Source: Macrostomum hystrix (taxonomy: Eukaryota; Animalia; Platyhelminthes). Taken from it: 64,000 bases of DNA. Positions within the stretch are counted from its first letter, which is position 1. The number at the start of each line of letters is the position of its first letter. Shown piece by piece: positions 21,801 to 45,309 of the stretch. A model generated the notes under the pieces. The model worked only from the letters and a program-made list of their open reading frames with translations. It had not been told where the DNA came from and searched no databases. The DNA lies in NCBI GenBank assembly GCA_950097015.1, contig CATNEN010000039.1:15128001-15192000 (forward strand), in the 5' to 3' direction. Both the position numbers and the translations under genes were made by a program.

Positions 21801-23688
21801 CGACGCCGAGGAGTTCTTTCCTAAGTCGCAGATTGAAACGCAAGAATTAGGAGAGCATAAATGTGACAAGCTTTTGACAGATTATCTGCCTTCCCCTCTG
21901 AAGCGCGAACAGATTTTAGAAGCCCAGCGTGCAGACCCAGCGATTCGCACCTTAATCGAATGGAAGCACAAAGGCTTAGACAAAACCCCATTGTCGAATG
22001 ACATGAGCTCTGAGCTGAGGCAAATGAGCAAAGCATTTGAGGCAATGTTTATTGAAAGAGGATTATTAATGATTAAAGAAGAAGGAGAATTGAAGGTTGT
22101 TTTGCCCCGGTCCGTGGACATGCTAGTCTTTAGCGATCTGCATGAGAGCCCACTAGCAGGACACTTGGGACGGGACAAAACACTTCAGCGAGTAAAGAAG
22201 CGATTTTGGAGACCTGGATTGGTCACAGCTATTGAAGGAATGATCGCTAAGTGCATTCCGTGTCTAGAAAGTAAAAAGGGCAATTATATCCAAGCCCCGG
22301 TGCAATCTTTTCCCATTTGTGAGCCATTCCATCGCTTACACATCGATTTAATCGGCCCTGTATCGAAGGAGAGCAGGAGAGGGCACAAATATGTGCTAAC
22401 TGTGGTTGACAGCACCACTAAATATCCATTTGCATTTCCTGTTCGGAATCAAAAATCAGATACAGTAATTAAACTGCTACAGGAGAGGGTATTCTCAGAG
22501 TATGGCCAATGCCATTGGATCCATACTGACAATGGCAAAACCTTCACTAGTAGGCAATTCAAGGCTTTTTGCGACCTTTATAATGTCAAACACACGTGTA
22601 CTACTCCTTACCATGCTCAAAGCAACGGGCTGGTAGAGCGCTTCAATAAGCAGGTGAAGTCCATCATTACCTGTCTTATTGAAAAGGATCATAATGATTG
22701 GGACCTAATGATCCCAGCAGCTCTAGTTGCGGTACGCACGAGTGTGAATAAAACGACAGGTTATAGTCCACACTATCTACTGTTCGGAAGAGAGGCTGTA
22801 TTGCCGATCGACAGTCAGATACAGAATCCAAAATCTTATGCCAATTATCCATCATATGTGGCCGATCATGCTGAAAGACTGAAAATAGCCGCCGAAATAG
22901 TTAAGAAGAAATTAGAAAAGGTAGTCGATCAGAGAGAAGAGATTGCTAAGACAACTAAATTACCTAAAGAAGTGCCGATTGGCAGTTTAGTTTTAATGAA
23001 TAACCCACAACTTGATAGCGAGGAGTCGCACAAGTTCCATCGGAAAAAGCGGTCTGCATTCAGAGTACTTGAACAGATCTCTGATGTAGTTTTCAAAGTT
23101 CAAAAGGAAGAAGAAGGCGAGCTAGTAGGAAACATCATGATAGCGCATAGAGATAATTTAACTACAGTGCCCAACTCGATCAAGGAGGCAATCGTTAAGG
23201 GAAGCCACCCCAGCGCCGTGATCGAGAAGGAAAAGATAACAAATAAGAAAACTCAGCCTAGAAAGACAGAATCAAGCATTAAGGGAAGCCACCCGAGGAA
23301 TCGGAATAAACAATCTGAGGAAAAGCAAACAAACCCATCAGATTCCGAGTCTGAAGACGAAGAAAGACTGATGTGGTATTGCGACAATAGAAATGAAGAC
23401 AATGAATTGAGAGGAAGCTTATTGGACATTGGAGCTGAAGTCGAAATAGACGATATAAACAATCAGTCTGACAATGAAAACACCGAAGAAGGGAGTGAAA
23501 GCGAGAGCGAGAATGAAAGCGAGGATATTAACACCTCAGAGGAAGAACAAAGCCAGAATGGCGAAGGTGATGAATTTGCTTCGCGCCCATATAACACAAG
23601 GAGAAGTGTTAATCCTCCAGCCAGATTTAGGGATTACTTGAAGCGTCTGTCCACAGCGATTGCGTGGCTTAGTAATATTCAATATTAA
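18871..23688 (+). CDS. pol: Gypsy Pol (protease, RT, RNase H, integrase), reached by -1 frameshift
   Basis: Protease LDTGA; RT LDLNSGYWQ and YIDD; RNase H TDASD; integrase H-x6-H..CxxC, DLIG, HTDNG and NGLVER. The frame is uninterrupted. Confidence 0.97.
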   Translation, partial: GKLKAEGRQSRPRPSCETQFETQASQKSRYPVKSQCFYQRGRRYAHIASAPAPNASAPRLSAPNASAPRLSAPNASAPRVSAPNASTPRVSAPIASSLSMPAPRSSAVSVSEESAIDEATEEDSAEELEPKTLVGRPAKKNQRTRENIFKTCSNVKLELVQPEGYEAVVVGSIKKTDVNFILDTGARNSFLSKSVWTKLIKSDQIKSTNKRVSTFDGTRVQLEGECCIFVKFGEIQVEIDFLLCSHECDNILGMEFFLGYCESINIANGMLVLHEGSCIPMQFTHLPVKVCRVYAQERTVIPANSALRIPVRLAKGSECNYGTPMTIEVVGEGVRAKEWTLEMVPTLVTMREGSAVVEIVNRHPFDVKLAKSALIGVAKPMKARELDYFKSSKQDESEPTVKVNQTQTVTDAWIEEVSLGPNLSEEQKKSVIDLMKEHREAFSQHELDMGLTHLVTHEISLKDETPVRIPTRRIPPHLQKQVDAQLDDMLAKNLIRPCYSTYSTPLVIVPKKDGTIRIVSDFRVLNSRVNYVPYPLPNIHQTFSYLSGSQYFSSLDLNSGYWQVPIKEEHKFMTAFSTLTRGQFEYEVMAQGLSNAPGTFQRLMNLVLLGIQHKFAMSYIDDIVTYSKTFAEHLAHLKEVFQRLITAGLKLRPKKCNLFHQELKYLGHVISTGGIRTDESKIEAIKTWPKPKDVKELRSFLGLCNYYSRFVKNYAEVAHPLFQLTRKNIQNFQEKWSAVHDEAFESLKTRMMSTEVLAYPEFVDDENVRMVLDTDASDGRIGACLGQIQSDGVERPIAYFSRAMKESEKRYPITRKELLALVDSMKHFRFYLLGKRFLARTDHKAIIWLLRQTEAQGILGRWIERLNEFQFDIEHRKGTSHQNADSLSRRPAEMAEEKKREEESAEEAESRVCAESGQEAMTQDSAICLTQSPTDPCEGEIPTIDPICRIESLISGGEKEVIQGDLAIDSSIMQLSPDAEEFFPKSQIETQELGEHKCDKLLTDYLPSPLKREQILEAQRADPAIRTLIEWKHKGLDKTPLSNDMSSELRQMSKAFEAMFIERGLLMIKEEGELKVVLPRSVDMLVFSDLHESPLAGHLGRDKTLQRVKKRFWRPGLVTAIEGMIAKCIPCLESKKGNYIQAPVQSFPICEPFHRLHIDLIGPVSKESRRGHKYVLTVVDSTTKYPFAFPVRNQKSDTVIKLLQERVFSEYGQCHWIHTDNGKTFTSRQFKAFCDLYNVKHTCTTPYHAQSNGLVERFNKQVKSIITCLIEKDHNDWDLMIPAALVAVRTSVNKTTGYSPHYLLFGREAVLPIDSQIQNPKSYANYPSYVADHAERLKIAAEIVKKKLEKVVDQREEIAKTTKLPKEVPIGSLVLMNNPQLDSEESHKFHRKKRSAFRVLEQISDVVFKVQKEEEGELVGNIMIAHRDNLTTVPNSIKEAIVKGSHPSAVIEKEKITNKKTQPRKTESSIKGSHPRNRNKQSEEKQTNPSDSESEDEERLMWYCDNRNEDNELRGSLLDIGAEVEIDDINNQSDNENTEEGSESESENESEDINTSEEEQSQNGEGDEFASRPYNTRRSVNPPARFRDYLKRLSTAIAWLSNIQY

Positions 23689-29995: not shown

Positions 29996-30416
29996 AGTAG
30001 TATGGGTTAACAGAACTCTGCCGCAAGGAATTCCGCGGAAATTCCGTGGGGCCCTAGTTTGCGAACATAGCGCCTATGTTTCACATAGCAGAACTCTGCC
30101 GCAAGGAAATCCGCGGAAATTCCATGGGACCCAGTGCATGTACATAGGTCCATGTTTTACATAGCAAAACTCTGCCGCAAGGAAGTCCTCGGAAATTCCG
30201 TGGGGTCCTAGTGTGTGAACAAACGCCATGTGTTTGCATAGTGGACTCTGTCGCAGGTAAATCTGTCTGAGAGGGAGAGAGGCAGTCAGTGCAGTCTGAT
30301 AAACCGATTGTTTATTCAGTTCCACTCCTCCAATGGGAATTTCACTTTTGCTCTGGTCTGTGTTATTTTTTCATATGAAGACAACAACAAAACAACTGTT
30401 GGTCTGGGGAAAACAG
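29996..30416 (+). repeat. Polinton left terminal inverted repeat
   Basis: Reverse complement of 44889-45309; I noticed only two substitutions. Confidence 0.95.
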
Positions 30417-30586
30417 TGAAACCACCGTCTGTTTGCAGTGGGTATGGCCAACACTGTAGAAATAGGACAGTGGATGCGTAGCATGGATACATAAACTCTG
30501 CCTAATGTTATTATATGTTTTCTTAGTATTATATATGCGCCCACAGTCTCACCCACCCCATTACATTAACCCACCCCACTCCGCTG

Positions 30587-30597
30587 GTATATAAGGG
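30587..30597 (+). promoter_or_regulatory. Putative TATA box for the rightward Polinton genes
   Basis: gtatataaggg lies ~85 bp upstream of the PC4-like ATG. Confidence 0.45.
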
Positions 30598-30674
30598 TGG
30601 GGATTTTTTTATTGTTAAGAGAGGATTTCTTTAAAACTAATAGCCATTTCGTCACGTAAGTTTGACCTGCTACC

Positions 30675-31436
30675 ATGGATCTTAGCGACGGCTTCAAAGT
30701 TCAAGTGCAGGAGTATGAAGGCAATAGATTCATCGCTATCCGACGCTTCTACTCTTCTGACGGGGAGCTGAAGCCTGGAATCCCTGGATTCAACTTGAAC
30801 GTACACCAATGGGAGAAGCTGAAGCAGCTAAGGCGCCAACTCGTGCAGGCTGCAGTCAACCGACGAAACGTCACTGCCAAGCTGGGCTCCGACAAGCTCG
30901 TAGAAGTCAAGCGAGGAGTCATCTGGCTCAAGCGACTGCCGGAGGACTGCACGGAGGATTTCCTGAGACGGAATTCGATCGAGATGACTCCCCGTCTGTG
31001 GCGAGCGCTGTGGTGCCATGTCGACCGGATCAGTAGTGAGCTGAGAGGAAAGTCACCGGAGTGCGAGTACGAGCTGGACCCTCAGGACATCAAGACCGAG
31101 CCGGACATCGAGAATCGGGCGGGCCAACACTCTAGTGAGGATGCGGACGACGAGAAGACGCTGCTGCTGATTTCCGAGTCAGACAACGCAACCTCCGAAC
31201 CGCTTCCAGCTGCAGCCCAAATTTCGACGCCCAAAGCATTCGGCTGCATCCCACAGCAGGACAGCGACCTGTCTCAGGATCCTTACTGGTACCAGGCCCG
31301 AGCGGCTGCGGGTCTCAGTGTCAACTGCTTGATCGGAAGCCGCAAGCGCAAGCAGCCATGGCCTCTGCGTAGGAGCGATGCGATCAAGTTTCCGAAGCTG
31401 ACGGATGACTCAGATGAAAACAAGGACAACGAGTGA
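30675..31436 (+). CDS. PC4/Sub1 (transcriptional coactivator p15)-like ssDNA-binding protein
   Basis: KVQVQEYEGNRFIAIRRFYSSDGELKPGIPGFNLNVHQWEKLKQ aligns by eye to the PC4 core [40 protein letters not shown]. There may be a second degenerate repeat (IEMTPRLWRAL), then an acidic tail. Confidence 0.85.
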   Translation: MDLSDGFKVQVQEYEGNRFIAIRRFYSSDGELKPGIPGFNLNVHQWEKLKQLRRQLVQAAVNRRNVTAKLGSDKLVEVKRGVIWLKRLPEDCTEDFLRRNSIEMTPRLWRALWCHVDRISSELRGKSPECEYELDPQDIKTEPDIENRAGQHSSEDADDEKTLLLISESDNATSEPLPAAAQISTPKAFGCIPQQDSDLSQDPYWYQARAAAGLSVNCLIGSRKRKQPWPLRRSDAIKFPKLTDDSDENKDNE

Positions 31437-31717
31437 ATTTCCAAGTGACAGTACATGCGTCAAATAATTTCTAACTTCTTTCATTTGGTCAAATGCGCGC
31501 TAAGCTTATTATCTATCCAGCCATATTTCAGCAATATAGGCTACAGTGTAATTTTGCTCTGTGCTTCTCGCAATAGCTAATTTAACTGTCTTTTTTGGCT
31601 TTATTTCTCGGTATATGTATCAAGACATTTTATAAACTACATTGTGGCAATGCAACTTAAGAAAGTTGCTAAAGACAATAAATAATATTGATTCTGACAT
31701 CCTCTTCATGTTGGAAA

Positions 31718-32785
31718 ATGGAAAAGCTTTACTACAATCCCGCTCAGCCGGCCAGTTTCTCAGGTGCATCAAAGTTGCAGCAGCAACTAGGGAAAAATAA
31801 TGAGGGGAAATCTAGAAAATACATTGAGCTGTGGTTAACTGAACAGCCCGTGCACACACTGCACAGGTCGGCTAGAAGGCGCTATCCCAGAGCACCAATC
31901 ATAGTGAGAGCGATAGATGACCAGTGGGAACTTGACCTGGTCGAGATGATCCCATTCGCCAAGTACAACAAAGGCTACAAGTACATCCTCACTTGCATTG
32001 ACGTGTTGTCTAAATCAGCATGGGCCAAGCCGTTTAAGAACAAATCAGCTGCAGAAGTAAAGTCCGCATTCGAGAGCATTTTGAGATGCTCAATGCGCCA
32101 GCCTCGCACAGTCCGCACAGATCAGGGAAAAGAATTCATAAACACTAATTTTAGGCAGTTCTGCATACAGCGGGGAATCCTGGCCTTCAAAACTAACAGT
32201 GAGCAGAAAGCTGCAGTAATTGAGCGATGGAACCGAACTTTGAAGAGTAAGATGTGGAAATATTTCACTCACAAGAGCACACTGCTCTGGATTGATGTGC
32301 TGCCTAAGCTGGTGAAATCATACAACAATACTTACCACAGAAGTATCAAAATGGCACCGACAAGTGTCTGCAAAGAGAATGAGTCTGAGGTGTGGATGAA
32401 TCTGTACGACGGAAAGGCAATTGAGACTGTACAGCGACCCAAGAAGCCAAAGTTCTGTGAGAAACAGTCTGTGAGAATTTCAAATGCACCCAGGCTGTTC
32501 CGAAAGGGATACAAGGCCAACTGGAGCGAGGAGGTATACACTGTAGTGTGCAGGGCACCAAAGCACTACCCGTACATGTACAAGATCCGAGACATGAAGG
32601 GTGAGGAGATTCGCGGGCTCTTTCACGAGTATGAGCTGCAGGCTGTTCCGGAATCACAGCGGCTGTATGTCATTGAGAAGGTTTTGAAGTCAGAAAAGCG
32701 CAATGGGAAAATCCGCTATCTTGTCAAGTGGGCTGGCTACAACTCCACAGGCTGGGTGGATGAAAAGGACTTAAGAAAAGTGTAG
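31718..32785 (+). CDS. Polinton retroviral-like (RVE/DDE) integrase with C-terminal chromodomain
   Basis: Starts MEKLYYNP. DDE triad WELDLVEM / TDQGKEF / IERWNRTLK. Chromodomain YVIEKVL..YLVKWAGY..WV. Confidence 0.95.
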   Translation: MEKLYYNPAQPASFSGASKLQQQLGKNNEGKSRKYIELWLTEQPVHTLHRSARRRYPRAPIIVRAIDDQWELDLVEMIPFAKYNKGYKYILTCIDVLSKSAWAKPFKNKSAAEVKSAFESILRCSMRQPRTVRTDQGKEFINTNFRQFCIQRGILAFKTNSEQKAAVIERWNRTLKSKMWKYFTHKSTLLWIDVLPKLVKSYNNTYHRSIKMAPTSVCKENESEVWMNLYDGKAIETVQRPKKPKFCEKQSVRISNAPRLFRKGYKANWSEEVYTVVCRAPKHYPYMYKIRDMKGEEIRGLFHEYELQAVPESQRLYVIEKVLKSEKRNGKIRYLVKWAGYNSTGWVDEKDLRKV

Positions 32786-32818
32786 ATAAGCTGCAGATAA
32801 AAAAAATAATCAGATATA

Positions 32819-33631
32819 ATGAGAAACATTGTCATCAACAGCAACCATGGTGAAGGTATTTCTAGTGATTTTTATTTTTACCTTGCTTCACCTCTTTACC
32901 TGGATCGAAATGTGGACTATGAGGCAGCTCTTGTGGAAATCCATCTACCTGCTGCATGGTTCAATCTTGACGAACCTTACTGCATCTCTGTCTCAGATGG
33001 AAGAGAGCATGAGACCCTGGTTCTTCAACCTGGATGCTTTGGCAGAGTGGAGGAGCTGGTGGAGTCTTTGAATGAGCTGCTAGCCAACTCACGGCTGCAG
33101 TTCTTTGATGCTAGAAGTGATGGAGATGCTGCAATGGAGGCTGATCAGTCAGGTCTGATGGGACATTCTGCACCTGCTGCGGACAATGGAATAAGGTGTA
33201 CAATTGATGGCTCAAGGACAGTGGTGCAGAATAACACAGCTCAGGTGGAGCTGTATCTCCCGCCTCACCGGATTCTGCAGTGGCTTTGATTCGGAAGCCA
33301 AGGATTAAAAGTCCCACCTGGGCGTCTTGTATCTGAGCAGTTCATCGGCTGCCCGCGCACCAACCTAATCAATGTGCACTGCAGCATCATTGAGTCGAAT
33401 AACTGCAACCACAGCTCCCTGCTGAGAACTGTTAGAATGAGAGATGACATTCAATGGGGTGGCTATGTGAGCAAAGTGTTTAAGAAAACGATATTCTTCA
33501 CCATTCCTAGAGTCATCTATCTACATGGTATTCGAGTGCAGTTGCGAGATATTTTTGGAAGCCTACTGATCGCGCAGTCCAGCAGTCCAGTTTTGCTAAC
33601 AATTCAGATCCGTGAAAAAAGAATTTTATGA
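32819..33631 (+). pseudogene. Polinton minor capsid (penton-like) protein with an in-frame TGA at 33287-33289
   Basis: The N-terminus (VINSN..SSDF..L..PL.L...YEAALVEI) and C-terminus (NVHCSII..LLRTV..IRVQLRDIFG..LTIQIR) look typical of Polinton mCP. Both halves are in one frame, and WL*F probably derives from WLGF. Confidence 0.75.
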
Positions 33632-33996
33632 ATTACCAGCAGCTGATTCGGCATTACTCGGGAGTTCAAACCCTTGGGGAGAAACCGGTACTCTATGGCT
33701 GCGGCAGCGCTCCAGGGCTCATGACGTACCAACCTCCACCGGTTGCTACAACTGCAGGTGCAGCGCGGCTAATAGACAAAAGGGAAAGTAAAAAGCCATC
33801 TGTGCGATCGAAAAGAAAACGAAAACATTCTGCTAAGGGTGACACAGGAAAGAAGAGTTCAAGAAAAAATCAGACGAGGGCCGGAAACAAAAAGCTTAAG
33901 AAGAAGAGAAAAACTAGGAAACAGAAAAAGGTAGGACAAGGAAAGCAAAAAATCTACAGAAAAACTGTGAAACGCGTACTGGATTCTCTGTCCTAA
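33628..33996 (+). CDS. Small Lys/Arg-rich putative core (DNA-condensing) protein
   Basis: Very basic C-terminal half; lies between the mCP and MCP genes; LYGC/G fits the adenain cleavage consensus. Confidence 0.6.
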   Translation: MNYQQLIRHYSGVQTLGEKPVLYGCGSAPGLMTYQPPPVATTAGAARLIDKRESKKPSVRSKRKRKHSAKGDTGKKSSRKNQTRAGNKKLKKKRKTRKQKKVGQGKQKIYRKTVKRVLDSLS

Positions 33997-34000
33997 CAAT

Positions 34001-35281
34001 ATGGCTTACGGGTTCAACCCTAGACTCGATCTGTTCAAGGCGCCTGTGCTTCAGACCTGTATTGAGAAATCTGCTTATGTTGACATTCATCCTGTAAACT
34101 CTATTGTTGCAAACTCACCAATTGAATTTGACTGCCATCAATCAGCTGATGAGTACACTGACCTGCTGAATTCCTTTCTCTATATTCGTTGTCGCGTTGT
34201 GAGATTGGGTGGTGCCCTGATCAGGGAGGATATTGTGACTGATGGTGCTGTTACCGAGCGCAGAGACAGCCAAGTGCACCCGGAGAATTTTGTTCTAGCT
34301 ACGGCCTTCTCGGATGTAATTGTCAGCATCAACCAGCGCATTGTCTCTGGAGGAGACCAGCTGTATCCCTACCATGCCTACTTCAAAGCTCTCATGAGCT
34401 CCTCCGATGCCCAGCAGCTTAAGTTTTACCCTGCTGGATTCCTGGAACCCGACTCTGCCGATGAGAGCCACACCGAGAGGCATATGATCTCCAACTGGGT
34501 GGAATATGCGGGACCCCTCCTCAGCGACATCTTCCAGTGCCCCGTGTTCCTGCTCAACAACTTGCACCTGCACATCAAACTAGTGCCCAGCGATGGAGCC
34601 TTTGCCATTAGAGCTCCTGCCCTCAACACCACAGCTTACCGAATGGAAATTTCCCACTGCATCCTGTACCTTCGCCGTGTCAAGGTGGTGCCCCACATCA
34701 GCCTGGCTCACGAGCAGGGACTAACGAATCAAAATGCTCTCTACCCGATCGAGCGAACTGAAATGCAGAACTTTATCCTGCCCCATGGAATTCAGTCAAA
34801 GAACATCGAGGGATTCACGCACGGAAAGCTCCCGAAGTTCATCATGCTGGCATTTGTGAGCCACCGAGCCTTCAACGGTCATCACCACTCCAGCCCGTTC
34901 CAGTTCCAAAGCTTCGAGCTGAGCCAGCTAGCTCTAAAGAAAGGGGGTGAATCAATGTGCCATGGGGCATTCACACCCGAGAACAATTCGTTTGTGAGGG
35001 AGTACCTGCACTATTTGAAAAGCTGCCAATCTGCAAGCTCCAGTGGTTCAGTTCCGTGGATTCCCTACCAACTGTTCTCGAACGAGAACACAGTGTTCGC
35101 ATTTGATCTCACACCTGAGGGAGCAGCTCTGTGGTACGGCCAGAAGGAGGGAAACCTGCGGCTGGAGATTCGCTTTCGACGGGCACTGGATGAAGCCGTG
35201 TCGCTGATTGTCATGTGCGTCTATGACTCACTGATTGAAGTAACCAAGCACAGGGAGCTCTTGCTGGACTATTCATCTTGA
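34001..35281 (+). CDS. Polinton major capsid protein (double jelly-roll, PY/hexon-like)
   Basis: 426 aa with LDLF..P..QT.IE...YVDIHP, PIEF, YTDL.NSFLY, YPYHAY, GKLPKFI, AFNG..SPFQF, VFAFDLTP and GNLRLEIRF; position within the morphogenesis module fits. Confidence 0.9.
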   Translation: MAYGFNPRLDLFKAPVLQTCIEKSAYVDIHPVNSIVANSPIEFDCHQSADEYTDLLNSFLYIRCRVVRLGGALIREDIVTDGAVTERRDSQVHPENFVLATAFSDVIVSINQRIVSGGDQLYPYHAYFKALMSSSDAQQLKFYPAGFLEPDSADESHTERHMISNWVEYAGPLLSDIFQCPVFLLNNLHLHIKLVPSDGAFAIRAPALNTTAYRMEISHCILYLRRVKVVPHISLAHEQGLTNQNALYPIERTEMQNFILPHGIQSKNIEGFTHGKLPKFIMLAFVSHRAFNGHHHSSPFQFQSFELSQLALKKGGESMCHGAFTPENNSFVREYLHYLKSCQSASSSGSVPWIPYQLFSNENTVFAFDLTPEGAALWYGQKEGNLRLEIRFRRALDEAVSLIVMCVYDSLIEVTKHRELLLDYSS

Positions 35282-35293
35282 GAGTACTGAAAG

Positions 35294-35809
35294 ATGGACT
35301 CAACTCAACTGTACTCTCTAACAAGGAGCTTTTTACCCAGCTCCAAAATCGTTATACTCACTCTCTGCTTAAAGCAGAGAGCTGTCACTGTAAATGCGGG
35401 CCAGAATTTGATGAAAAAATGCTTCAACCGAAATAAAATAATTTTCATTCTGCTAAAACACAGCGTCAGTTTTGGACACTGGGTTGTATGCCACTTTGCT
35501 GATGGAAATACAGTGGAGTTATTCAATTCTCTTGGTTGGGATGAAGAAGCTTTAGCTGTAATTCATGAATACTTGAAGGATATAGGTGGGATGGTTCAAT
35601 TTCAACTGGTTTGCAACGTCAATAAAATCCAAAGCGCTCAGTCGGACAAGTGCGGCCTGTTTTGTGTCTACTTTGCCCACCAGAGGCTAGCTTTGAAGCG
35701 GTCCTTCCTGGGTATTCTCACGAGTCTGCATGCAAAGAAGAAATGTCACCTGAATGATAAAGTACTCAGGCAATTTGAAGTTTGCTTAAGAAAAACCCAG
35801 AAACCTTGA
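35294..35809 (+). CDS. Adenain-like cysteine maturation protease
   Basis: GHWV (His), ELFNSLG, IQSAQSDKCGLFCVYF (Gln and catalytic Cys). Confidence 0.88.
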   Translation: MDSTQLYSLTRSFLPSSKIVILTLCLKQRAVTVNAGQNLMKKCFNRNKIIFILLKHSVSFGHWVVCHFADGNTVELFNSLGWDEEALAVIHEYLKDIGGMVQFQLVCNVNKIQSAQSDKCGLFCVYFAHQRLALKRSFLGILTSLHAKKKCHLNDKVLRQFEVCLRKTQKP

Positions 35810-35835
35810 GTATATTCTGAAAGTCTATTGAAGAG

Positions 35836-36483
35836 ATGGAATCTCAGAAAGCATGCTACGATGTTCGCCTGCGTCAGGGCAGCTGCATGATTGTCAGCGG
35901 TCCCACAAATGCGGGAAAGACAACCTTTGTGAAGCATCTAATTCAGTATAGGGAAGTCCTATTCGACATTCAACCTGGCAGAGTGCTCTGGTACTATGGG
36001 ATTCCACAGCCGGCGCATGCTGAGCTAAGCCGCCTGGGGGTCCACTTGCAGCAGGGATTCCCCTCCAACTTTGAGACAGCACTCAGATCCAATGACCTGG
36101 TTGTGTTTGACGACTTGATTGACGAAAGCTCAAGTTCTGCTTCAATGCGAAATATCTTTACTGGAATAGCCCATCATCTGCCCTGCTTTCTGGTGATGCT
36201 GACACAGAACATGTTTTTCAAGGGAAAGGAGTTGCGGACGATGAGTTTGAATGCCATGTACTTCGTAATCATGAAGAACCCCAGAGATCAGCTGCAGATT
36301 TCCGCATTGGGCAGGCAGTGCTTTCCCGAGAAGCCGAGTTTTCTGCTTGCGGTGTTCAAGCATGTCACATCGCAGGGTAGGGGGGCATATCTGTTTCTGG
36401 ATTTCCACCCGTCCACCCCCGATGAGCGGCGAGTCCGAGCGCGAGTTCTGCCCAATCAGCGCCCCCATCTGGTCTATGCTTAA
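35836..36483 (+). CDS. A32/FtsK-like genome-packaging ATPase
   Basis: Walker A SGPTNAGKT, Walker B LVVFDDL, then LTQN, RTMSLNA and KNPRD. Confidence 0.93.
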   Translation: MESQKACYDVRLRQGSCMIVSGPTNAGKTTFVKHLIQYREVLFDIQPGRVLWYYGIPQPAHAELSRLGVHLQQGFPSNFETALRSNDLVVFDDLIDESSSSASMRNIFTGIAHHLPCFLVMLTQNMFFKGKELRTMSLNAMYFVIMKNPRDQLQISALGRQCFPEKPSFLLAVFKHVTSQGRGAYLFLDFHPSTPDERRVRARVLPNQRPHLVYA

Positions 36484-36532
36484 GAATGGATCACTTGTGA
36501 TCATCCTGGTCATTCAAACAAAGAAAATTAAT

Positions 36533-36849
36533 ATGGAAGTGTTTGATTGCCATCAAAGTTTGTTTGAAGTTCTAGCCTCATATGCTAAATACACTATTCG
36601 CCTCAAGCGCATGTTAATAAAAGAAAGCCCAAAAGAAGTTGGAATTTTCCTTGCTGAAGCCTGCCACAACCTGCTACAAGACAATTTACCCTTCTCACCT
36701 CAACTGTACTTAAAAAATCAAAGGAAATTATCCGCAGAATCCCTGCAAAGAAAAGAAAAGCTGATTTGCTGACTGCTGCTTTCATCAAGATTCTTCCAGT
36801 TCTGCTGAAACTTGTGAAGAAGAGGAGGGCAAATGCACAAATTCAATGA
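36533..36849 (+). pseudogene. Small Polinton morphogenesis-module protein, apparently frameshifted near 36770
   Basis: LAEACHNLLQDNLP..SLQRKEKL, with an amphipathic tail (AAFIKILPVLLKLV) in another frame. Resembles the small ORF that typically follows the Polinton ATPase. Confidence 0.45.
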
Positions 36850-37614
36850 AATGGTTTTAATTGCGAAATCAGAGTATGAAATGCTGACACAGAGTGCAAA
36901 GCCCACTGAGTCTGTAACTGATGCGACCATGAAACAGGCGCAGATGAAGTGTGATGAAATTCTGTTCGCTGAAGATTGTCCTGACGATGTGAAGACTGCC
37001 ATGTACCAGAGTGCAATGAAAAGCCTGCTGGTCAAACGCAAGCAGCTAGGAAACGAAGTGAGAGGTAGTGAGGCAAAAGTTTTGAAAGTGGAGATGACAG
37101 GTAGAAACTTGGATGAAAAGATCTATCAGTCAGTGCCACAGAAGTTCAAGGCAAGAGCTCGCAGTCTATGGGCCATCCTGTCCGGTAATGAGTCTTCAAT
37201 CCGAGTTTATGACAATGGGGAGGTCGAGATTTCAGGCCGCTTGATCCCCGCCTCAAACATTGTGGATTTAATTCAGCACACTGTAAGAGACTCACAGAGT
37301 GCCAGTGAACCAACTGGCTGGAAAGAATTCATTGATTTACTAAGACAAAAGGACCTAAATGTCCCTTTGACTGCAGTTGGAAAGTTTGCTCGCAAGCAAA
37401 TTCTGCAGCACACTGCTGATGGCGCTGATAGAGTTCGCAATGAACAATCTCCAATCAAGGGATTAGGCAGTGAGTGTGCGTGGCTAAGGCTTAACAAAGG
37501 CAGAAGAAACGCTATAATAACTCGAATGAAAAATAGAAAAATATTTTCAAAAGTTTCAAGCGGTGTCCATACCAAAAGAGCTCGAAGTATGGCATCACCG
37601 GTACCACCACCACC

Positions 37615-37655
<41 letters not shown>

Positions 37656-38251
37656 TCGAATTGAATACAGCAGCTTCAACCCTGAGGGTCACCAATCTGG
37701 TTGGCGGAGTGGATCTAAGACTGACTGGAGGCAGGGGCGCCCAGCTTCCTTTAAGGGAGCTGGCTCTCAGCATGGCTAATGTGATCTACCGGCCCGTTTG
37801 GCCCCGAGTGCTCATCAAGCAGATGCGTCAACCCAGAGTCACCCTGCTGCTCTACCCAACTGGTCAACTGAGCATCTGCGGCGCAAAGTGCTACTCCGAC
37901 TCAGTCAGAGCTGCCCATCGCTTCGTGGCTATGCTACATCGCCGAGTGCCGGCTCAACTGCTGCCTCGTCAAGCTGTCTGCTTGAGAATCAAGACTATCA
38001 CTGCGCATGGCAAACTTAATTTTAGCAATGCACTTCCCTTGGCGAATCTTGTTGATGCATTGCCGAACGCTGAATATGAACCCGAAACTTTTACTGCTTT
38101 AATATGTAAACTCCGTAATTGTAAATGTTTGCTATTTCACAATGGCTCATTTGTACTCAGTGGTGCAAAGTCAATAAATGTGCTGGAGGAGGACTTATCT
38201 CATTTGCTCAACCTTCTCTCTGCGAATTCGTTGTTTTTTCAAAATAAATAA
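36833..38251 (+). CDS. Conserved Polinton protein (PZ-like; IPASNIVDLI..PTGWKEF..NVP) in frame with a C-terminal TATA-binding-protein-like domain
   Basis: Single 472-codon frame. The first ~220 aa carry Polinton-type motifs and the last ~190 aa are a two-repeat TBP core. Confidence 0.85.
37589..38251 (+). CDS. TBP: Divergent TATA-box-binding protein (TBP/TRF-like), possibly translated from its own ATG at 37589
   Basis: Repeat 1: VTNLVGGVDL..LPLRELALSMANVIYRP..MRQPRVTLLLYPTGQLSICGAK..SVRAAHRF. Repeat 2: LPLANL..AEYEPETFTALICKL..CLLFHNGSFVLSGAK. These are colinear with canonical [31 protein letters not shown] and YEPELFPGLIYR..LLIFVSGKVVLTGAK. Confidence 0.88.
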
Positions 38252-38474: not shown

Positions 38475-41400
38475 TTAATCCTCATCATGATGGCGTGAAC
38501 TGGCTAGGCGCCGCTTGCGTTTGGTGATACCATTTTGATGCTGCTGCTGCTGTAGAAGTCGGAAGTGTCCGAACGGGAGACTACAGTTCGGTCCTAGCCA
38601 GGCACGCTTGTCCTCCCAAATGCTAAGCGCACACTTCCTTTGTTGCAGAGTGAAGAGTCTGTGTCGTATGCTGGCAATACGCTGAACAACGACAGAGAGG
38701 CTGCAGAGCTCTTTGAAGACCTTCAAGTAGTCGCTATGAGCAATCTCCCTCTTGACAACACATCCCTGAATACCTTTAGCTCTTTTCTTCTCGGCTGATT
38801 CATCGCTTGCCCTAAACGAGTAAAGCTTCGGTCTTAGGAGCAGCCACTCCAGATAGTAAGCTCCTGCTGCTTCATCCTTGATGCAACCCAGACGAGCCTT
38901 TAATTCGTTCGAGAACAGTGCATGCTGGGGTGGATAGTTTGAGGTATCTAATAACCGCTTCGACTTGAGCAGAGGCAGAACTCCAGACTGAACGCTCATG
39001 TTGCTGATTGAAAGAAAGAAAGAGTCGGTATCTCCACCACAGAGTCTCACACTAGCTCCTTCCTGCTCAATCCATGGCTTGAGCTTGTCGTAGAAAAGTT
39101 CATACATGATCATCTTCGAATAGTCCAGAACGCACTGTCCAATGAAGATTGGTCGGTCAAGTTTAATCTTGGTCTTCTGCAACTCCATAATGCTAAGCGA
39201 GCCGGTAATAATGTTGAAACTTGTCACTGACGGCTTCGAGGCGAGCACCTTCGCCTTTGCAACATCGGTGCAAATTCTAATGTCGCGTCTCTTACGCACA
39301 TTTTCCATTGTCTTGCCAAACAATGCGTTGTTTTTCAGCTTGTAAAAATATTTTTCAAAGCTGTTTGATGCAGCAGCTCGCTTTGCACTATTTTTCTCGA
39401 CATACGAAGCAAAGACGGGCTCTTGTCGGAACTCAATCATGCGATTGATACACTTTATTCGCATTCCATGTCGTAAGTAAAATGCCAGTATGGAAGAATG
39501 AAGTATATAGGACTTCTTGTCATGGCAGGTGAGCATTAGCTTCTCTGTTGGATGGTAGGCAGAGTCCTCTTTACCAAATTGCTTCCACAGCTGCTTCATG
39601 TATTCAGGAAACTCGCTGAAACTCGGCGCCATCTTTTCTGGCGCAAATGGTAAATCTTCTGTGCTGGTATGAATCTCTATCGAGTACAGAAGGTCAGCAT
39701 CGATAAGGTAGGCAACAGAATCTGTCGTTTGCAGTCCTTGAATACGATCATCTGTCCATAGGAGCAACTCTTCTTCGTCTAGCCAGCGGAAGTCTCCAAC
39801 TGGCAAATGCATCGTGAGAGCTTGTCCATAGAGGTTGTTGGCGTCTACTGCGAGGAGCTCAGTGCGATCAGCTGGTGGAGTTGTCAGGTCTGTCTCACTC
39901 TCATCATCATCGCACTGAGAGCTTACATTACGTGGGCTTGCCAACACTCGGTGAACGTTCACAAAAGTTATGCCTCCTCGAATTCCACACTCAAACATTG
40001 AATACATTTGCGGATCTGTTAAAAGTTCGATTGGAGACCTGATGGACTTTAGCGCAGAAGCAAAAGATAGTCCTGGAGTTGTAATGAAATGAACAGGATC
40101 AAGACCATCCTCTCGAAGACTGAGCTTCCGAAAATTTTCAAACACATCTGCAAGCTGTCTAATGTCCAACTCAAGGTAGCGCAGCATGTAGTCCTTCAAA
40201 TTGGTCACCTGAAATTCATGCCAGGCTCGCTGTGCATGCTCATAATCCGAGTCGCTGCAGTGACTCTTCGTAAGAAGATTATAAAAGTTTTCTTTGCTGG
40301 GAAGTACCATGTCATTGAGCACATCGATCTTCGTCAGATAATCATACGGAAAGATGCCTTTGTTGAACAACACTTCCGATGACAGACTCGGATACGAGTT
40401 TTTAAGCCGAGCCGTGATTGGGCATTCTTCTTCTGGCAAATTCTTGATCAGCTGTGCCAGGCTGGCATTCAGGAACTGATTGGAATCGATGAATTGAATA
40501 GTGAAATAGAGCGGCTTGATCTTGCCCTCACTCTCATATTCATCGATTTTGAATTCAATCTTCATAGCGAGAAACTGCTCAGGATTCTGCGGTATGACTG
40601 AAATTCTCCATCCTTCCATGAGACCCAACGCTGTTGACAACATCAGATGAATGTCATACCCTTTTAAGTTGTGCATGATGATGGGTAGAAAGCGTCTCTT
40701 TAGTCTCGCTTGCATGTTGCAGGGTGGGCAAGCGGCTCCTCGGAATATACCACTCAGGTGATCATGATCCCAGTGTTTCTGGGACTCGTTCTGAAACTGG
40801 CTTCCACAGTAGCAGCAGGCTACGGCTTCTCGAAACAGCTTTTTAGCTGCATCAGTCTTTATGGCTGCCTGCCTACTGAACTCCGTGTTCCAGCCGTATA
40901 CTTCTCGAGCGAGCTGCTCCAGTGACTGCAGGAACTCGGCAATGCACTTGTTGGGATCATCGCTAACAAAAGTGCTCACTTTGTCATCAGCTCCCCGAGG
41001 TGCTAATCCTGTCATGCCTTCTCTGTGCACCACAATGTAGCCCGCGGCAACGGCAACATGCTCAGTGACCTTCTTCGTAGATGAACCTGCTGGTAGATCG
41101 TCTTGACATGGTACATTCAGTGCTTCAAAGTCGGCATAAACAACGAATGGTGGACTGATTGTTTTTTCCCATGACGAAAATTGCAAAAAATTGTGATTTA
41201 CATCTGGCAACTCTTCCTTTACGTTGATCACTCCAGGTTGACAAGGAGCTCGACAGTGCTCTTCAAAGGCTGAGTCACTGTGAAAGGGCATCAAGCAGCG
41301 CTCACACCACTTTCGCTGATGCAGGGACACTTTGCTATTGAGAAGCCGGTTGATGCTTGAGACAGCGCACCAATGACCTGAGACCTCATCTTCCGATGGC

Positions 41401-42590
41401 GGAACGAACAAGAGCAGAACAACTCTTCGATCTTTCATTGTGGCTGCAGTAGGCACGCGGAGGACTTGAGCAGCATCATTCTCCCAGATGAAAACTGTGA
41501 AGCATAGTCCTGTGTTTTGTCTCTCAACAGCAGCAAGGTCGTTCACGTTGACTGGCAAGTTCAAACCACTCATGTCGAGTTCATCCAGCCAGTCGGTGTA
41601 CGAGGATTCGCGTTGCGCTGATTTTCTTATTTTGCTGTTTTCCTTGTGTAGGAAAGCAAGGCATGCATAACGGAAACAATTTTCACCATTGCTTGGAGGA
41701 CAAATAACAGCCTTCTTCCGTAGAAGCAGAGTCGGCAGTACAAATTCTGCAGCACGCCCTGTATAGTAGGGAACTCGATCGACGAGAGCAGAGTAAAGTT
41801 CAAAAAAATTGACCTTGTCAATCATCCAACCGCTACCGTTGGCGTTGTACACATCGACTTTGCGCTCCAGCTCCGTAAACTGCTGCCTCCACCAATCATC
41901 GAACTCCTCCACATCTACCAGCAATCCGAGTTGTGTGCTCATCCATTTATCCTCCGCATTTACAACTTCTAACGCCTGCACCCTGATCATGTGCAAATTC
42001 AACTTAATCTGAGCTCTCACGAAGCAATTTTCAGAGGAGTCGAGGCGAACTTCAAGACACTGCAGGACAGCGTTTTTGCTTAAATCAAGAAACTCGAAAG
42101 GCTCAGTGATAGATTTCGGAGTAAATCGATGAACTTGAAGAACATCATCGTGAGCGCTATTTTCCAACGTCAGGAAGAAAGATGGTCCTACAATTAAAGA
42201 GGAAGAGGAAGACAACAGTAATAATATTGGTTTCATTTATTTATTGCTTTAACATTCAGGCTCAAATACTTCTCTGTTTCACCTCATCCAATTTTAAGCC
42301 CAACGATTAATTTCACTCCATATCCTGTTCATATGCCCCCATTTTAACTTATTTCCCGAGAAATAATCCTAAATTTAAAACGATACCGTAGCAGAGGCAT
42401 GTCTACAACGAGCTAGCAAGCAAAAACTAACATAATAAGCACATCATCCACAAGCACGTGTGCCCTTGTCAAGTAGTTCAAACAAATAAGTCAGGCATAA
42501 AATGTTTCACTTACTGCTTGACCCGAACTCGCGACTGACAGCTGGGTCCAGCAGCGCTTCCTTGAGACTCGATGAGGCCCCAGAAGACAT
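38475..42590 (-). CDS. polB: Protein-primed family B DNA polymerase (pPolB); probable first exon 42590-42515 and main exon 42187-38475
   Basis: Exonuclease motifs VYADFE, MHNLKGYD, FIDS, KGIFPY and YLELD. Polymerase motifs DANNLYG, KLKNNALFGK, GDTDS, RPKLY and RAKG. EndoVII-like insert CCYC..DHDH.SG.FRGAAC..CN. The frame is uninterrupted for 1253 codons. Confidence 0.96.
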
Positions 42591-43112
42591 CACAGAGAAT
42601 TATGGTGAAGCTATGCGGCACCACTCAGAAAGCAAGTCAATGCTGCTGAAATTCAGTTTCAATTTCATTTTGCATGCAAATTATACATCGATATCGATAG
42701 ATCAAATTCTAGTCTGGTCCACATAGAGTCAAGAGTTGAAACCAATCCTAAAAGCAAAGAGTTTGAGTGAGTGATTGAATCCTAGCTGCTATAGAACCTG
42801 ATTTAAAGAAAAAATACGTAAAACCGTGAATTCATAAAAATTAATGATAACAAATGCGTCCGGAGCATCATTTCAATCCATTTTATTTCTTCCAAAAACA
42901 CATGACCACAGAAAATCATGCTCTAAAAATCACTTCTCGCTCCTTATCATCATCATAATAAAAGTTACAATGTGAACTGTCTCAAGGCAAATAATATTAT
43001 CATTTACTTATATATAACAGCAAAAATAGAACACGGATGCCGACTTTAAATGCTGTCACTCGAGACACAACGCTTATGGGAAATTGGAATTAACAGTAAT
43101 CTATTGTTCGAT

Positions 43113-44429
43113 CTACTGCTGAACACTACTCAATTTAATGCACACACCACCCCCAAAGTCAATGGTGTACTCGCCGACAACGCTGCTGGGAAGCACGAGC
43201 TGCATGAAGACTGGGACTGGTGCGGCTTCTACAACTTTGACTGCCTCTTGCATAACAGTAGGCTGAGCAGCTGGCTCATCCTGCTCTAGTTCATGCAGAA
43301 TGTCCGTCAAGCTGATGTCCATGTTCACAATTGCTCTGGCCTGCTCCAGATTTTTTGCGGCAATTGGAGGGGGTCGTTGCTGCTGCTGCTGCTGCTGCTG
43401 CCGCTGTCCTTCTGTATTCCCGGCATCTTCCAAGTCAAACTCGAGGTCTTCGAAGAATGCTGTGTTCAGCTCCTCAGCGGGTGAATCAAGCTGAATAATT
43501 GGAATGCCATCTTCATCATCATCATTCTCATGATAGTTAATAACCTGATCAGGCCTGAATTCAGCTGCGACCAGCTCAACTACATTAGCGGAGGCAGCAG
43601 TGGCGGCTGCGGCATCGAGGACATCAGGTGCGACGGTGGCGTGGACATCAGGTGCGGCGGTGGTGTGGACATCAGGTGCGATGGTGGCGTGGACATCAGG
43701 TGCGGCGGTGGCGTGGACATCAGGTGCGGCGGTGGCGTGGACACCAGGTGCGATGGTGTGGACATCAGGTGCGGCGGTGGCGTGAACATCAGGTGCAACG
43801 GTGGCGTGGACATCAGGTGCGGTGGTGGAGTGGACATCAGGTGCGGCGGTGGCGTGGACATCAGGTGCGATGGTGGAGTGGACATCAGGTGCGGCGGTGG
43901 CGTGGACATCAGGTGCGGCGGTGGCGTGGACACCAGGTGCGATGGTGTGGACATCAGGTGCGGCGGTGGCGTGAACATCAGGTGCAACGGTGGTGGAGGG
44001 TTGAACATCGGCTGCAGCGGCGGAGGCTGCAACAACGACAAGGGCGACTCGGGTGGCAGCAGAGGAGGTATCAGACATTTCAGTGCAGATCCCTCGAATA
44101 GTCTGGCTGAGCGTGCTCACCGGCTGGCGCATTCGCTCAGACTCTTTGCGAGCTTCGTCGTGCTGAGCAGCTTCGAGGGCAGCAGATCGGGACGCATCCA
44201 TGTCGCTTGGAGCACCCCAATTGATCACTAAATGGTTTCTGTGATTTTTTATTTGTGCTCGAGCGTTGAAAACTTCGACTGATTGGCACTGCATGCAAGC
44301 AAGCCAGCGACTAACTCGGCATGAGTCTTTTGACTTGTGCCATTTTAGTCCGCCCAGCTCGCACAGGCCGCAGTCGATGCACACCTCGAACACGTAGGAT
44401 GGGCAGCGCGATTTGTTTTTTGCAGTCAT
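43113..44429 (-). CDS. Polinton accessory protein: Cys-rich N-terminus, APDVHATA repeats, acidic/Gln-rich C-terminus
   Basis: Long ORF inside the TIRs with CxxC pairs (CIDC, CMQC) and an in-frame 21/24-bp repeat array. No family recognised. Confidence 0.65.
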   Translation of the reverse strand: MTAKNKSRCPSYVFEVCIDCGLCELGGLKWHKSKDSCRVSRWLACMQCQSVEVFNARAQIKNHRNHLVINWGAPSDMDASRSAALEAAQHDEARKESERMRQPVSTLSQTIRGICTEMSDTSSAATRVALVVVAASAAAADVQPSTTVAPDVHATAAPDVHTIAPGVHATAAPDVHATAAPDVHSTIAPDVHATAAPDVHSTTAPDVHATVAPDVHATAAPDVHTIAPGVHATAAPDVHATAAPDVHATIAPDVHTTAAPDVHATVAPDVLDAAAATAASANVVELVAAEFRPDQVINYHENDDDEDGIPIIQLDSPAEELNTAFFEDLEFDLEDAGNTEGQRQQQQQQQQRPPPIAAKNLEQARAIVNMDISLTDILHELEQDEPAAQPTVMQEAVKVVEAAPVPVFMQLVLPSSVVGEYTIDFGGGVCIKLSSVQQ

Positions 44430-44698: not shown

Positions 44699-44888
44699 GG
44701 CCAATTACAGCAGGTGAGAATAAAGTCATCCCCTGCCCACCAACCCCCAAAAAAGCACTGTACAAACCCCATTCCAGTGCGCCTGCACTCACATTTTCCC
44801 CGGCCGGCCTCTCCTCCTATCTCTGCAGAGTCAACAACCCCAATGCAAAGAGATAGACCGGCCTCTCCTCCTATCACTGCAGTGTTCC

Positions 44889-45309
44889 CTGTTTTCCCCA
44901 GACCAACAGTTGTTTTGTTGTTGTCTTCATATGAAAAAATAACACAGACCAGAGCAAAAGTGAAATTCCCATTGGAGGAGTGGAACTGAATAAACAATCG
45001 GTTTATCAGACTGCACTGACTGCCTCTCTCCCTCTCAGACAGATTTACCTGCGACAGAGTCCACTATGCAAACACATGGCGTTTGTTCACACACTAGGAC
45101 CCCACGGAATTTCCGAGGACTTCCTTGCGGCAGAGTTTTGCTATGTAAAACATGGGCCTATGTACATGCACTGGGTCCCATGGAATTTCCGCGGATTTCC
45201 TTGCGGCAGAGTTCTGCTATGTGAAACATAGGCGCTATGTTCGCAAACTAGGGCCCCACGGAATTTCCGCGGATTTCCTTGCGGCAGAGTTCTGTTAACC
45301 CATACTACT
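44889..45309 (-). repeat. Polinton right terminal inverted repeat
   Basis: Reverse complement of 29996-30416. Confidence 0.95.

Follow-up and report, generated by a model that had tools for sequence, protein, structure and literature searches.

The Polinton described here likely switches on its own late genes, because its TBP is reshaped and the sequence TTAAGAA stands before the majority of the genes for its particle and its integration. In the full reading, to which we give an even chance, the late switch is worked by one protein, an altered TBP that likely reads TTAAGAA, and the PC4-like protein of the same element is likely an early ssDNA-binding helper of replication. The element lies in a window of 64,000 nucleotides, the whole stretch of DNA analysed, which comes from an animal genome, likely that of a flatworm.

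According to this reading, host TFIID would first transcribe the genes with TATA boxes, namely PC4, probably the polymerase, a 438-aa ORF, and TBP itself. The element TBP would bind TTAAGAA, expected to be a poor site for the TBP of the host; the intact acidic stirrup of the element TBP would dock host TFIIB, Pol II would be recruited, and the boxed genes (integrase, capsid, and packaging) would then be switched on late. During copying by the protein-primed polymerase, PC4 would coat the displaced strand. An early/late switch run by the element had been proposed in the preliminary description; it is supported by the changes on the DNA face of TBP and by TTAAGAA, but none of this support comes from PC4.

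The element and its genes

The Polinton is 15,314 bp long, with TIRs of 425 nt that differ by 3 mismatches and the 6-bp target duplication GCCACT on both flanks. The hallmarks of the class are present: long TIRs with AG...CT ends and the 6-bp duplication, an rve integrase (PF00665, E 1.7e-12), a protein-primed PolB (PF03175, E 7.8e-17), and an A32 ATPase and an adenain protease, both with weak Pfam matches. The features outside the TTAAGAA boxes are as follows.

29996..30420, strand not applicable: left TIR, 425 nt, starting AGTAGT, with the duplication GCCACT just before it
30588..30595, + strand: canonical TATA box TATATAAG of the PC4-like gene, 87 nt before the ATG, with CACCC-rich sequence upstream
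30675..31436, + strand: PC4-like gene, 253 aa, first rightward ORF (Pfam PF02229, E 4.5e-11 at residues 3-51)
31718..32785, + strand: rve integrase with chromodomain, 355 aa (Pfam)
32819..33631, + strand: probable penton (minor capsid) gene, which a single in-frame stop (33287-33289) interrupts in this copy
33628..33996, + strand: Lys/Arg-rich ORF of 122 aa, probably a virion core protein
34001..35281, + strand: ORF of 426 aa, probably the major capsid protein (it weakly matches, at E 0.028, a double-jelly-roll protein of locus L012 recognised by Pfam)
35294..35809, + strand: adenain-type cysteine protease, 171 aa (Pfam Peptidase_C5, E 0.0085, below the cut-off)
35836..36483, + strand: A32-type packaging ATPase, 215 aa (weak Pfam Pox_A32; 31-32% identity to the ATPases of loci L040 and L050)
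36533..36830, + strand: small conserved Polinton gene with an apparent frameshift near the middle in the window copy
36833..37588, + strand: conserved Polinton gene (presumably PW-like) and linker, reading on into TBP in the window copy
37513..37520, + strand: candidate TBP promoter, a TATA-like TATAATAA lying 76 nt ahead of the ATG of TBP
37589..38251, + strand: divergent two-repeat TBP, 220 aa, with a core of ~190 aa behind a poly-Ala leader encoded by a GCA repeat
38475..42236, - strand: DNA polymerase B of the protein-primed type, 1253 aa, carrying an endonuclease VII-like insert (Pfam)
43007..43014, - strand: TATATAAG on the polymerase strand, ~780 nt ahead of the polymerase ATG and putatively linked to that gene
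43113..44429, - strand: 438-aa ORF with a Cys-rich N-terminus, 8-residue repeats, and an acidic C-terminus, candidate activator
44885..45309, strand not applicable: right TIR, followed by GCCACT

Both capsid labels are ones that we take from motifs and position; Pfam returned no match for the penton gene, and neither candidate capsid ORF matched its double or single jelly-roll capsid proteins. The L050 ATPase itself matches Pox_A32 in Pfam. The start of the small conserved gene at 36533 was picked by eye from its L040 and L050 homologues, and it has a C-terminal match in another frame (E 0.009). The 438-aa ORF has a TATA-like AT tract ~70 nt upstream and gave no significant family match. Three AATAAA sequences lie between the polymerase-strand TATATAAG, which is a second copy of the octamer beyond that of PC4, and the polymerase ATG.

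None of the 12 ORFs scanned with Pfam matched an RNA polymerase family, in line with the earlier description of a 15-kb element lacking this enzyme. The nearest named relatives are proteins of Macrostomum lignano, and contigs of sequencing runs X1-X4 contain divergent pieces of both regions. The integrase is mostly without contig cover in X2 and X3, and its cover was not used as evidence. No relatives of the element were found in viral contigs with TBP, capsid, two TBP alignments, ATPase, and integrase as queries, nor in one scan of metagenome contigs.

The TBP and the TTAAGAA box

The last rightward ORF (36833-38251) is open for 472 codons, and TBP forms its last 220 residues, from the ATG at 37589. 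The earlier assignment of this gene as TBP-like therefore stands for the two TBP repeats but not for the whole ORF; the half ahead of TBP corresponds to another gene of Polintons, present as a separate 181-aa gene in L040 (E 5e-8). TBP stands alone in four close relatives (190-202 aa), and a stop codon separates the upstream gene from TBP in both contigs that cover the junction, one each from X1 and X2; the contigs of X3 and X4 do not span it. Since the relatives encode TBP alone and both junction contigs carry a stop, the fusion belongs to the window copy, and with the separate gene in L040 this led us to reject the 472-aa protein as a true family feature. Gene models P0004 and P0005 also fuse the upstream gene to TBP, via a different linker. 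Atlas TBP clusters (0.85) returned for the upstream 225 residues were set aside, as they probably derive from the rest of the protein.

The two repeats were matched by Pfam (PF00352, E 1.3e-23), and all 35 matches at E<=0.001 in a PDB sequence search were TBPs or TBP fusions. The predicted model is a full saddle (Foldseek rmsd ~2 Å and TM ~0.85 to the target), with 22-30% sequence identity to cellular TBPs. In two quick trees, the family formed its own clade on a long branch; an archaeal origin, raised by the top PDB matches, was rejected as the family does not group with the archaeal rows. Divergent TBPs were also found in three unrelated Polinton fragments. Third codon positions held 25 of the 38 differences between TBP copies (p 4e-5, for the best-supported 40 of 143 rows), an excess indicating that TBP is kept under selection.

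Residues were compared in six members of the family, three of the cellular rows being partial; positions and residue roles (TFIIB stirrup, DNA face) follow yeast TBP. E186/E188, F190, F207, and N69 were kept in all six, and the retained acidic C-terminal stirrup (E186, E188) predicts docking of TFIIB. All six also share W-P at 98/99, Y116, S122, C124, and T159, where the canonical residues are R-F, F, V, T, and N, respectively. The element TBP further differs from cellular TBP at Q120, T161, and S215, and the basic K120/K211 are lost in the family. Thus, F190, F207, and N69 are what remains of the canonical TATA-binding set (four intercalating Phe, Asn69/Asn159, and Thr124/Thr215). The five closest members carry a 6-residue insertion after strand 1.

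The word TTAAGAA occurs seven times on the coding strand of 31437-38251 and never on the other strand. A gene start lies within 150 nt of six of the seven boxes, and at 48-61 nt for four of them.

31657..31663, + strand: TTAAGAA, 61 nt before the integrase ATG
32771..32777, + strand: TTAAGAA, 48 nt before the penton ATG, within the last integrase codons
33480..33486, + strand: TTAAGAA, 148 nt before the basic 122-aa ORF
33896..33902, + strand: TTAAGAA, 105 nt before the major capsid ATG
35786..35792, + strand: TTAAGAA, 50 nt before the ATPase ATG, within the last protease codons
36480..36486, + strand: TTAAGAA, 53 nt before ATG 36533 of the small ORF

The box therefore precedes six of nine downstream genes; the protease, the PW-like gene, and TBP have none within 150 nt of their starts. 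The two boxes inside upstream coding sequence read Leu(TTA)-Arg(AGA), and only 2 of 26 Leu-Arg pairs are so coded. For a zone of 40-70 nt, 5 of 400 random ATG sets equalled the observed result, with 1316 frequent 5-7-mers competing; the motif and the distance zones were chosen after the sequence was seen, and the box was tested in one copy. When the first ATG of the small ORF was used in place of 36533, 19 of 400 sets equalled the observed result, and in wider zones plain A-rich words (AGAAAA) outranked TTAAGAA. These two results indicate that coding-strand composition accounts for part of the signal. Four other 5-mers were more strand-biased than TAAGA, and TTAAGAA was not evident in L040, L050, and L012, whose TBPs differ.

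These counts also bear on a different explanation, in which TBP is a decoy or competitor for host TFIIB or other TBP partners, or an ordinary TATA reader, and TTAAGAA reflects A-rich composition or a host-factor site. We regard this as possible, if rather doubtful. A decoy would account for a TFIIB stirrup kept while several DNA contacts changed and the basic K120/K211 were lost, and the dependence of the box statistics on start choice and the competing A-rich words fit an incidental box; moreover, the L012 Polinton TBP is near-canonical at the DNA-contact positions, so altered specificity is not obligatory among Polinton TBPs. However, the DNA-face changes show no drift, being the same throughout the family, and four aromatics remain; four boxes fall within a distance range of 14 nt, two of these inside coding sequence.

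The PC4-like protein and its possible roles

As initially described, the first rightward gene encodes a PC4-fold protein behind a canonical TATA box; the sequence TTAAGAG, too, precedes the ATG of this gene, at 60 nt. The protein matched human PC4 and MoSub1 chains in a PDB search (4usg, E 4.4e-6). It consists of the domain at residues 3-51, a probable degenerate beta-beta-beta-alpha repeat at ~66-125, an acidic stretch at 127-180 (16 D/E vs 3 K/R), and a tail. Like the PC4/Sub1 family (PF02229, including a phage T5 homologue), the domain keeps an arginine and a K-P-G motif, and, as in MoSub1, it has Tyr at the W89 position. It differs from the family in lacking the N-terminal regulatory region, in the probable second repeat on the same chain, and in the added acidic stretch and tail, and several basic residues of the DNA-binding face of human PC4 are replaced.

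The second repeat is judged probable by eye and from a low-confidence single-sequence model (pLDDT 58) with a strands-plus-helix unit. It gave no BLAST self-match, no Pfam match, and no PDB sequence match; a Foldseek search of BFVD with the model yielded nothing at E<=0.001, and in a wide PDB structure search the best Z was 5.0, with no PC4 chain among the matches listed. The nearest Atlas clusters are 120-136-aa PC4 proteins (scores 0.86-0.89), which we take as a lead only. None of 21 candidates passed in a PC4 homologue search, and tblastn against 54 loci, in which the Polinton-like loci are fragments of 1-4 kb, gave no match at E<=0.01. A 133-aa gene just before TBP in L001 and L002 looked PC4-like by eye and was rejected, being unsupported by Pfam, BLAST, hhalign, and PDB profiles. 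The "PC4" of PMC11662393 is a cluster label, not the PC4 protein.

In human PC4, lysine-rich and acidic regions precede the domain (excerpts of PMC9600219). As the fold here begins at residue 3, these lysine-rich and serine/acidic N-terminal regions are absent. Because the box is an ordinary TATATAAG that occurs on the polymerase strand as well, the human N-terminal coactivator region is missing, and an acidic stretch follows the fold, the sequence makes a replication ssDNA-binding protein the likelier candidate role, over that of a partner in the TBP switch. The phage T5 homologue is described as a replication factor (excerpts of PMC7549692).

Alternatively, PC4 and TBP might jointly form a minimal viral pre-initiation complex, in which TBP would pick the promoter and the tandem PC4 would stabilise or melt it, or offer an acidic activation surface. 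We consider this improbable. Both genes are intact within one 15-kb element, divergent pieces of both regions recur in the sequencing-run contigs, and PMC7145618 describes N4-like phages with an ssDNA-binding polymerase cofactor. In yeast Sub1, the PC4 domain likewise lies near the N-terminus before a long tail, and the protein acts in transcription (excerpts of PMC9600219); by this likeness, the architecture is also compatible with a transcription role. Against the joint complex stand the missing lysine-rich region and the host-type TATA box of PC4, though an early box also suits a cofactor made early. Furthermore, the place of TBP varies: it precedes the ATPase in L040 and L050, follows the capsid gene in L012, and lies elsewhere again in the window. 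With three such neighbourhoods, the bracketing of the gene block by PC4 and TBP, noted earlier, carries little weight. A complex prediction of the TBP core with PC4 residues 1-127, folded without alignments, scored 0.00 and counts neither for nor against the joint complex. Hence, of the initiation module suggested previously, the presence of both genes in one element stands, but nothing was found that links PC4 to TBP beyond that.

A TBP fold with a non-transcription job (TIR binding in replication, integration, or packaging), or a 472-aa chimera carrying TBP into the virion, is very unlikely: the frame is open in the window, TBP has a packaging or capsid gene as its neighbour in each of L040, L050, and L012, and a TTAACAGA word lies near the TIR end, but the junction contigs carry stops, close relatives are stand-alone, the window copy has other breaks, and the conserved TFIIB stirrup points to transcription.

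Comparison with known systems

The proposed late switch worked by TBP can be set beside several known systems. With cellular TBP (PF00352) and TRF2/TLF, the element TBP shares the two-repeat saddle, N69, E186/E188, F190, and F207; it departs from cellular TBP at 98/99 (W-P), Y116, Q120, S122, C124, T159, and T161. TRF2 loses most of the intercalating aromatics, whereas the element family keeps four. Viral TBP folds of Nucleocytoviricota match the element TBP in BFVD but are 8-21% identical to it, and Nucleocytoviricota with TBP homologues encode their own RNA polymerase.

With Polintons/Mavericks (adintoviruses), the element shares TIRs, the 6-bp duplication, integrase, protein-primed PolB, ATPase, protease, and probable capsid genes. 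VLTF3 is a transcription factor reported in some polintoviruses (PMC11131425), and in excerpts of PMC8502044 a MELD virus gene is labelled TBP in a figure legend, with no analysis of TBP alongside. The question addressed concerns the timing of gene expression in animal Polintons, and whether a true viral cycle runs without a helper virus. If the late-switch reading is true, a selected TBP and its matching box would give Polintons an early/late programme and provide a natural altered-specificity TBP, so that a single protein of 190 aa and a sequence of 7 bp would suffice to test the question, in a host lineage with a laboratory model. With the PC4-like gene, Polinton replication would gain a candidate for its ssDNA-binding protein. 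A broader proposal, that animal Polintons acquired TBP repeatedly and turned it into a promoter selector like a sigma factor, the flatworm TBP and single-chain tandem PC4 being the smallest known viral pre-initiation complex, which delivers host TFIIB and Pol II to a private TTAAGAA promoter class, seems unlikely to us.

A further parallel is with the TBP mimics of beta/gamma-herpesviruses (EBV BcRF1, KSHV ORF24, and HCMV UL87), where a TBP fold likewise occurs in a virus that encodes no RNA polymerase and structural genes follow a variant of the TATA box (TATT there, the candidate box TTAAGAA here). According to PMC4893493 and PMC7498053, these mimics read TATT at late promoters, share ~10% identity with TBP, depend on five further proteins of the virus, and bind the Pol II CTD via an N-terminal domain. 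In contrast, the element TBP is a bare core of ~190 aa (183-202 aa in relatives) without a Pol II-binding N-terminal domain. The herpesvirus TBP/TATT system is thus an analogy to the element rather than a class to which it belongs, and the late switch, if true, would be a second and far simpler way of achieving what takes herpesviruses six proteins.

The Polinton and its PC4-like gene

The Polinton that houses the PC4-like and TBP genes was complete, with a length of 15,314 bp and a target duplication of GCCACT. The rightward gene order was PC4-like, integrase, probable penton, basic ORF, probable major capsid, protease, ATPase, small ORF, and a 472-codon frame; the leftward genes were a 438-aa ORF and protein-primed PolB. 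We take the penton, capsid, and PW labels from motifs and gene order, and family searches brought no confirmation of these labels.

29996-30420 and 44885-45309: terminal inverted repeats (TIRs), 425 nt with 3 mismatches, ends AGTAGT/ACTACT
43113-44429, minus strand: 438-aa ORF with N-terminal CxxC pairs, 8-residue repeats, and an acidic tail

By analogy, the 438-aa ORF, which is preceded by a TATA-like tract, is a candidate E1A-like activator. The adjoining 880-nt stretch (42236-43113) contained no long ORF and had two back-to-back TATA boxes at 43007-43016; the polymerase gene may have a spliced leader or first exon there. The probable penton gene had a single in-frame stop in the window copy. 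This stop (33287-33289), an apparent frameshift at about 36700, and read-through to TBP before 37589 made three defects, reflecting decay or assembly error, although the TIRs of this copy were nearly identical. A contig of sequencing run X2 was near-identical to the window copy, with 14 letters and 7 gaps different across 4.8 kb. Elsewhere, an intact-looking Gypsy-type pol ORF of 1506 aa (19168-23688, plus strand) showed protease, RT, RNase H, and integrase motifs by eye.

As the preliminary description stated, the first rightward gene encodes a PC4/Sub1 fold (PF02229, residues 3-51, E 4.5e-11) behind a TATA box (TATATAAG at 30588). Its PDB matches included human PC4 and MoSub1. The conserved Arg and K-P-G were retained, the position that we take to be W89 was Tyr, and several basic residues were replaced. 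A low-confidence model showed residues 66-125 as a possible second, degenerate repeat, for which sequence searches gave no confirmation, and residues 127-180 were acidic (16 D/E versus 3 K/R). PMC9600219 describes lysine-rich and serine/acidic N-terminal regions in human PC4; these are absent from the Polinton protein, since its domain starts at residue 3. A phage T5 PC4 homologue is reported as a replication factor in PMC7549692, whereas yeast Sub1, with a layout similar to that of the Polinton protein, has a role in transcription according to PMC9600219, which speaks against a pure SSB reading. Taken alone, the PC4-like gene is somewhat more likely than not to encode a replication helper.

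A contig of run X2 started at 30623, which is 35 nt past the T that opens the PC4 TATA box; 20 unaligned letters at this end match a template-switching cDNA adapter. The same contig stopped at 31696, and an X3 contig at 31694, right after the AATAAA at 31677; the X2 contig end bore a tagmentation adapter. With run X2 labelled just 'DNA?', these contigs hint only weakly at transcription of the PC4-like gene from its TATA box.

The TBP gene and its family

The TBP fold proposed for the end of the rightward block was real. Pfam detected PF00352 in two stretches (E 1.3e-23), and all 35 PDB sequence matches at E<=0.001 contained TBP. The model built from five sequences had pLDDT 79 and pTM 0.66 (the remaining four models, pLDDT 70-49), and with it Foldseek returned 44 matches at E<=0.001; among the matches listed, all were TBP entries, with rmsd of about 2-3 A for plain TBP chains. 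The preliminary description is thus partly confirmed: both the PC4 and TBP genes hold, but TBP is not the plain last gene, being just the final 220 residues of a fused 472-codon frame. The first half of this frame resembles a separate 181-aa gene of L040, a metagenomic Polinton (21% identity, E 5e-8), four close relatives stand alone as proteins of 190-202 aa, and a stop codon interrupts the junction in both sequencing-run contigs that span it. The fusion is therefore peculiar to the window copy and arose by mutation or assembly error. Two gene models (P0004, P0005) join both parts through a different linker and two others (P0006, P0012) join TBP with unrelated sequence, all of which we infer to be gene-prediction joins.

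Among 1.84 billion representatives, a profile search found five at E<=1e-30: three models from M. lignano, a Logan protein, and a 183-aa JGI protein. Ordinary TBPs started only at E 8e-24. All named relatives were Macrostomum lignano proteins, which makes this flatworm or one of its relatives the likely host. In two quick trees, one with 132 rows retained out of 155 and one with 40 chosen rows, the family sat on a long branch as a single clade (SH-aLRT 92), separate from canonical eukaryotic and archaeal rows. Third codon positions held 25 of 38 differences between TBP copies (p 4e-5; best 40 of 143 rows, less one outside the TBP gene and one position listed twice), and the family is under purifying selection. 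Mapped on canonical TBP, with residue numbers (yeast) and roles as we assume them, N69, V71, E186, E188, F190, and F207 were retained in all six family members, W98-P99, Y116, S122, C124, and T159 were common to all six, and K120 and K211 were lost. Hence the family keeps four aromatic residues and the stirrup for TFIIB, and its base-reading centre is altered in a fixed way, a pattern that would suit changed specificity better than decay. In run X1, up to 10-11 contigs per position matched the first repeat of the TBP (whole gene, 37589-38251) at >=80%, and several of these had a start codon of their own shortly ahead of the domain, which suggests that one organism carries several TBP-bearing families.

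The TTAAGAA box and TATA boxes

CTTAAGA was first spotted ahead of several genes by reading upstream sequences. Within 31437-38251, all seven copies of TTAAGAA lay on the coding strand: 61 nt ahead of the integrase start, 48 nt ahead of penton, 50 nt ahead of ATPase, and 53 nt ahead of ATG 36533 (small ORF), farther off for the major capsid (105 nt) and basic ORF (148 nt), and once within integrase. The protease, PW-like gene (36833-37588), and TBP had no such box within 150 nt of their starts. With all 1316 frequent 5-7-mers allowed to compete, 5 of 400 random ATG sets scored as high as the real starts in the 40-70 zone, or 19 of 400 with the first ATG of the small ORF; ATG 36533 was picked after the motif was seen and accords by eye with homologue starts in L040 and L050. 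In wider zones A-rich words were on top (1-3 of 400), and four 5-mers exceeded TAAGA in strand bias, so that composition adds to the signal. Leu-Arg was spelled TTA-AGA in 2 of 26 pairs, both of them boxes within coding sequence. The box evidence, drawn from one copy, is moderate.

The PC4 gene, by contrast, has TATATAAG. The polymerase strand holds this octamer too, at 43014, roughly 780 nt away from the ATG and with a putative link to the polymerase gene. The TBP gene has TATAATAA at 37513.

Other Polintons, proposed mechanism, and known systems

An alignment of other short, divergent TBPs, used as the query of a scan, matched 54 loci (ORFs listed for 14; all 54 screened by tblastn). Three were Polinton fragments; the rest of those examined held cellular TBPs, archaeal or eukaryotic.

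L040, 127-3740: TBP-ATPase-...-PW-like-integrase
L050, 3-1049: TBP (partial)-ATPase
L012, 707-3075: ATPase-capsid-TBP, TATATAAG ahead of a near-canonical TBP

All three TBPs fell outside the window family in the tree; that of L012, which kept nearly all DNA contacts, was placed close to canonical eukaryotic TBPs (support 88). TBPs in three unrelated Polinton fragments indicate that Polinton TBPs are not limited to the window lineage, and from these sequences repeated capture is plausible. At two loci (L001, 138-905; L002, 241-2468), a 133-aa gene behind TATATAAA lay directly ahead of a divergent TBP. A nearby gene resembles by eye the DnaQ-type nuclease that is likewise joined to TBP in P0006; these loci are possibly another mobile element.

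From the observed folds, residues, and boxes, we infer binding, timing, and the PC4 role as follows. The most likely mechanism, at about even chances, is a late switch by the element TBP via TTAAGAA, with PC4 as replication helper. Host TFIID would transcribe the TATA-box genes after activation; the element TBP would next bind TTAAGAA, its stirrup docking host TFIIB, and the integrase, capsid, and packaging genes would be switched on. PC4 would coat displaced single strands in protein-primed replication.

A decoy or canonical TBP, with a box that is due to chance or read by the host, is an unlikely alternative. Still less probable is a joint PC4-TBP complex. The interpretation in the preliminary description is partly supported, its element-run switch by the altered DNA face of the TBP and by the TTAAGAA box. 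The bracketing of the gene block by PC4 and TBP is not conserved, because TBP neighbours differ in each of L040, L050, and L012. A TBP fold with a non-transcription role, or a real fusion, is the least probable reading.

Our literature search on Polintons together with PC4, TATA-binding protein, late promoters, or Macrostomum, in which subscription journals were sparsely covered, listed no study of such a late switch by an element TBP. By term search, the main texts of papers on vertebrate, nematode, and coral Polintons, of a PLV framework, and of a Preplasmiviricota review lacked TBP, TATA, or PC4, which their supplementary gene tables may list. For MELD viruses, a figure legend labels a TBP gene (PMC8502044; preprint 10.1101/697771), and a search of one supplementary file of PMC8502044 gave no hits. 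The late switch would be analogous to that of beta- and gamma-herpesviruses, whose TBP mimic pairs with a TATT box (PMC4893493, PMC7498053). However, the Polinton TBP is not a member of that group, lacks the Pol II-binding N-terminal domain of the mimic, and is far nearer cellular TBP, and its box differs from TATT.
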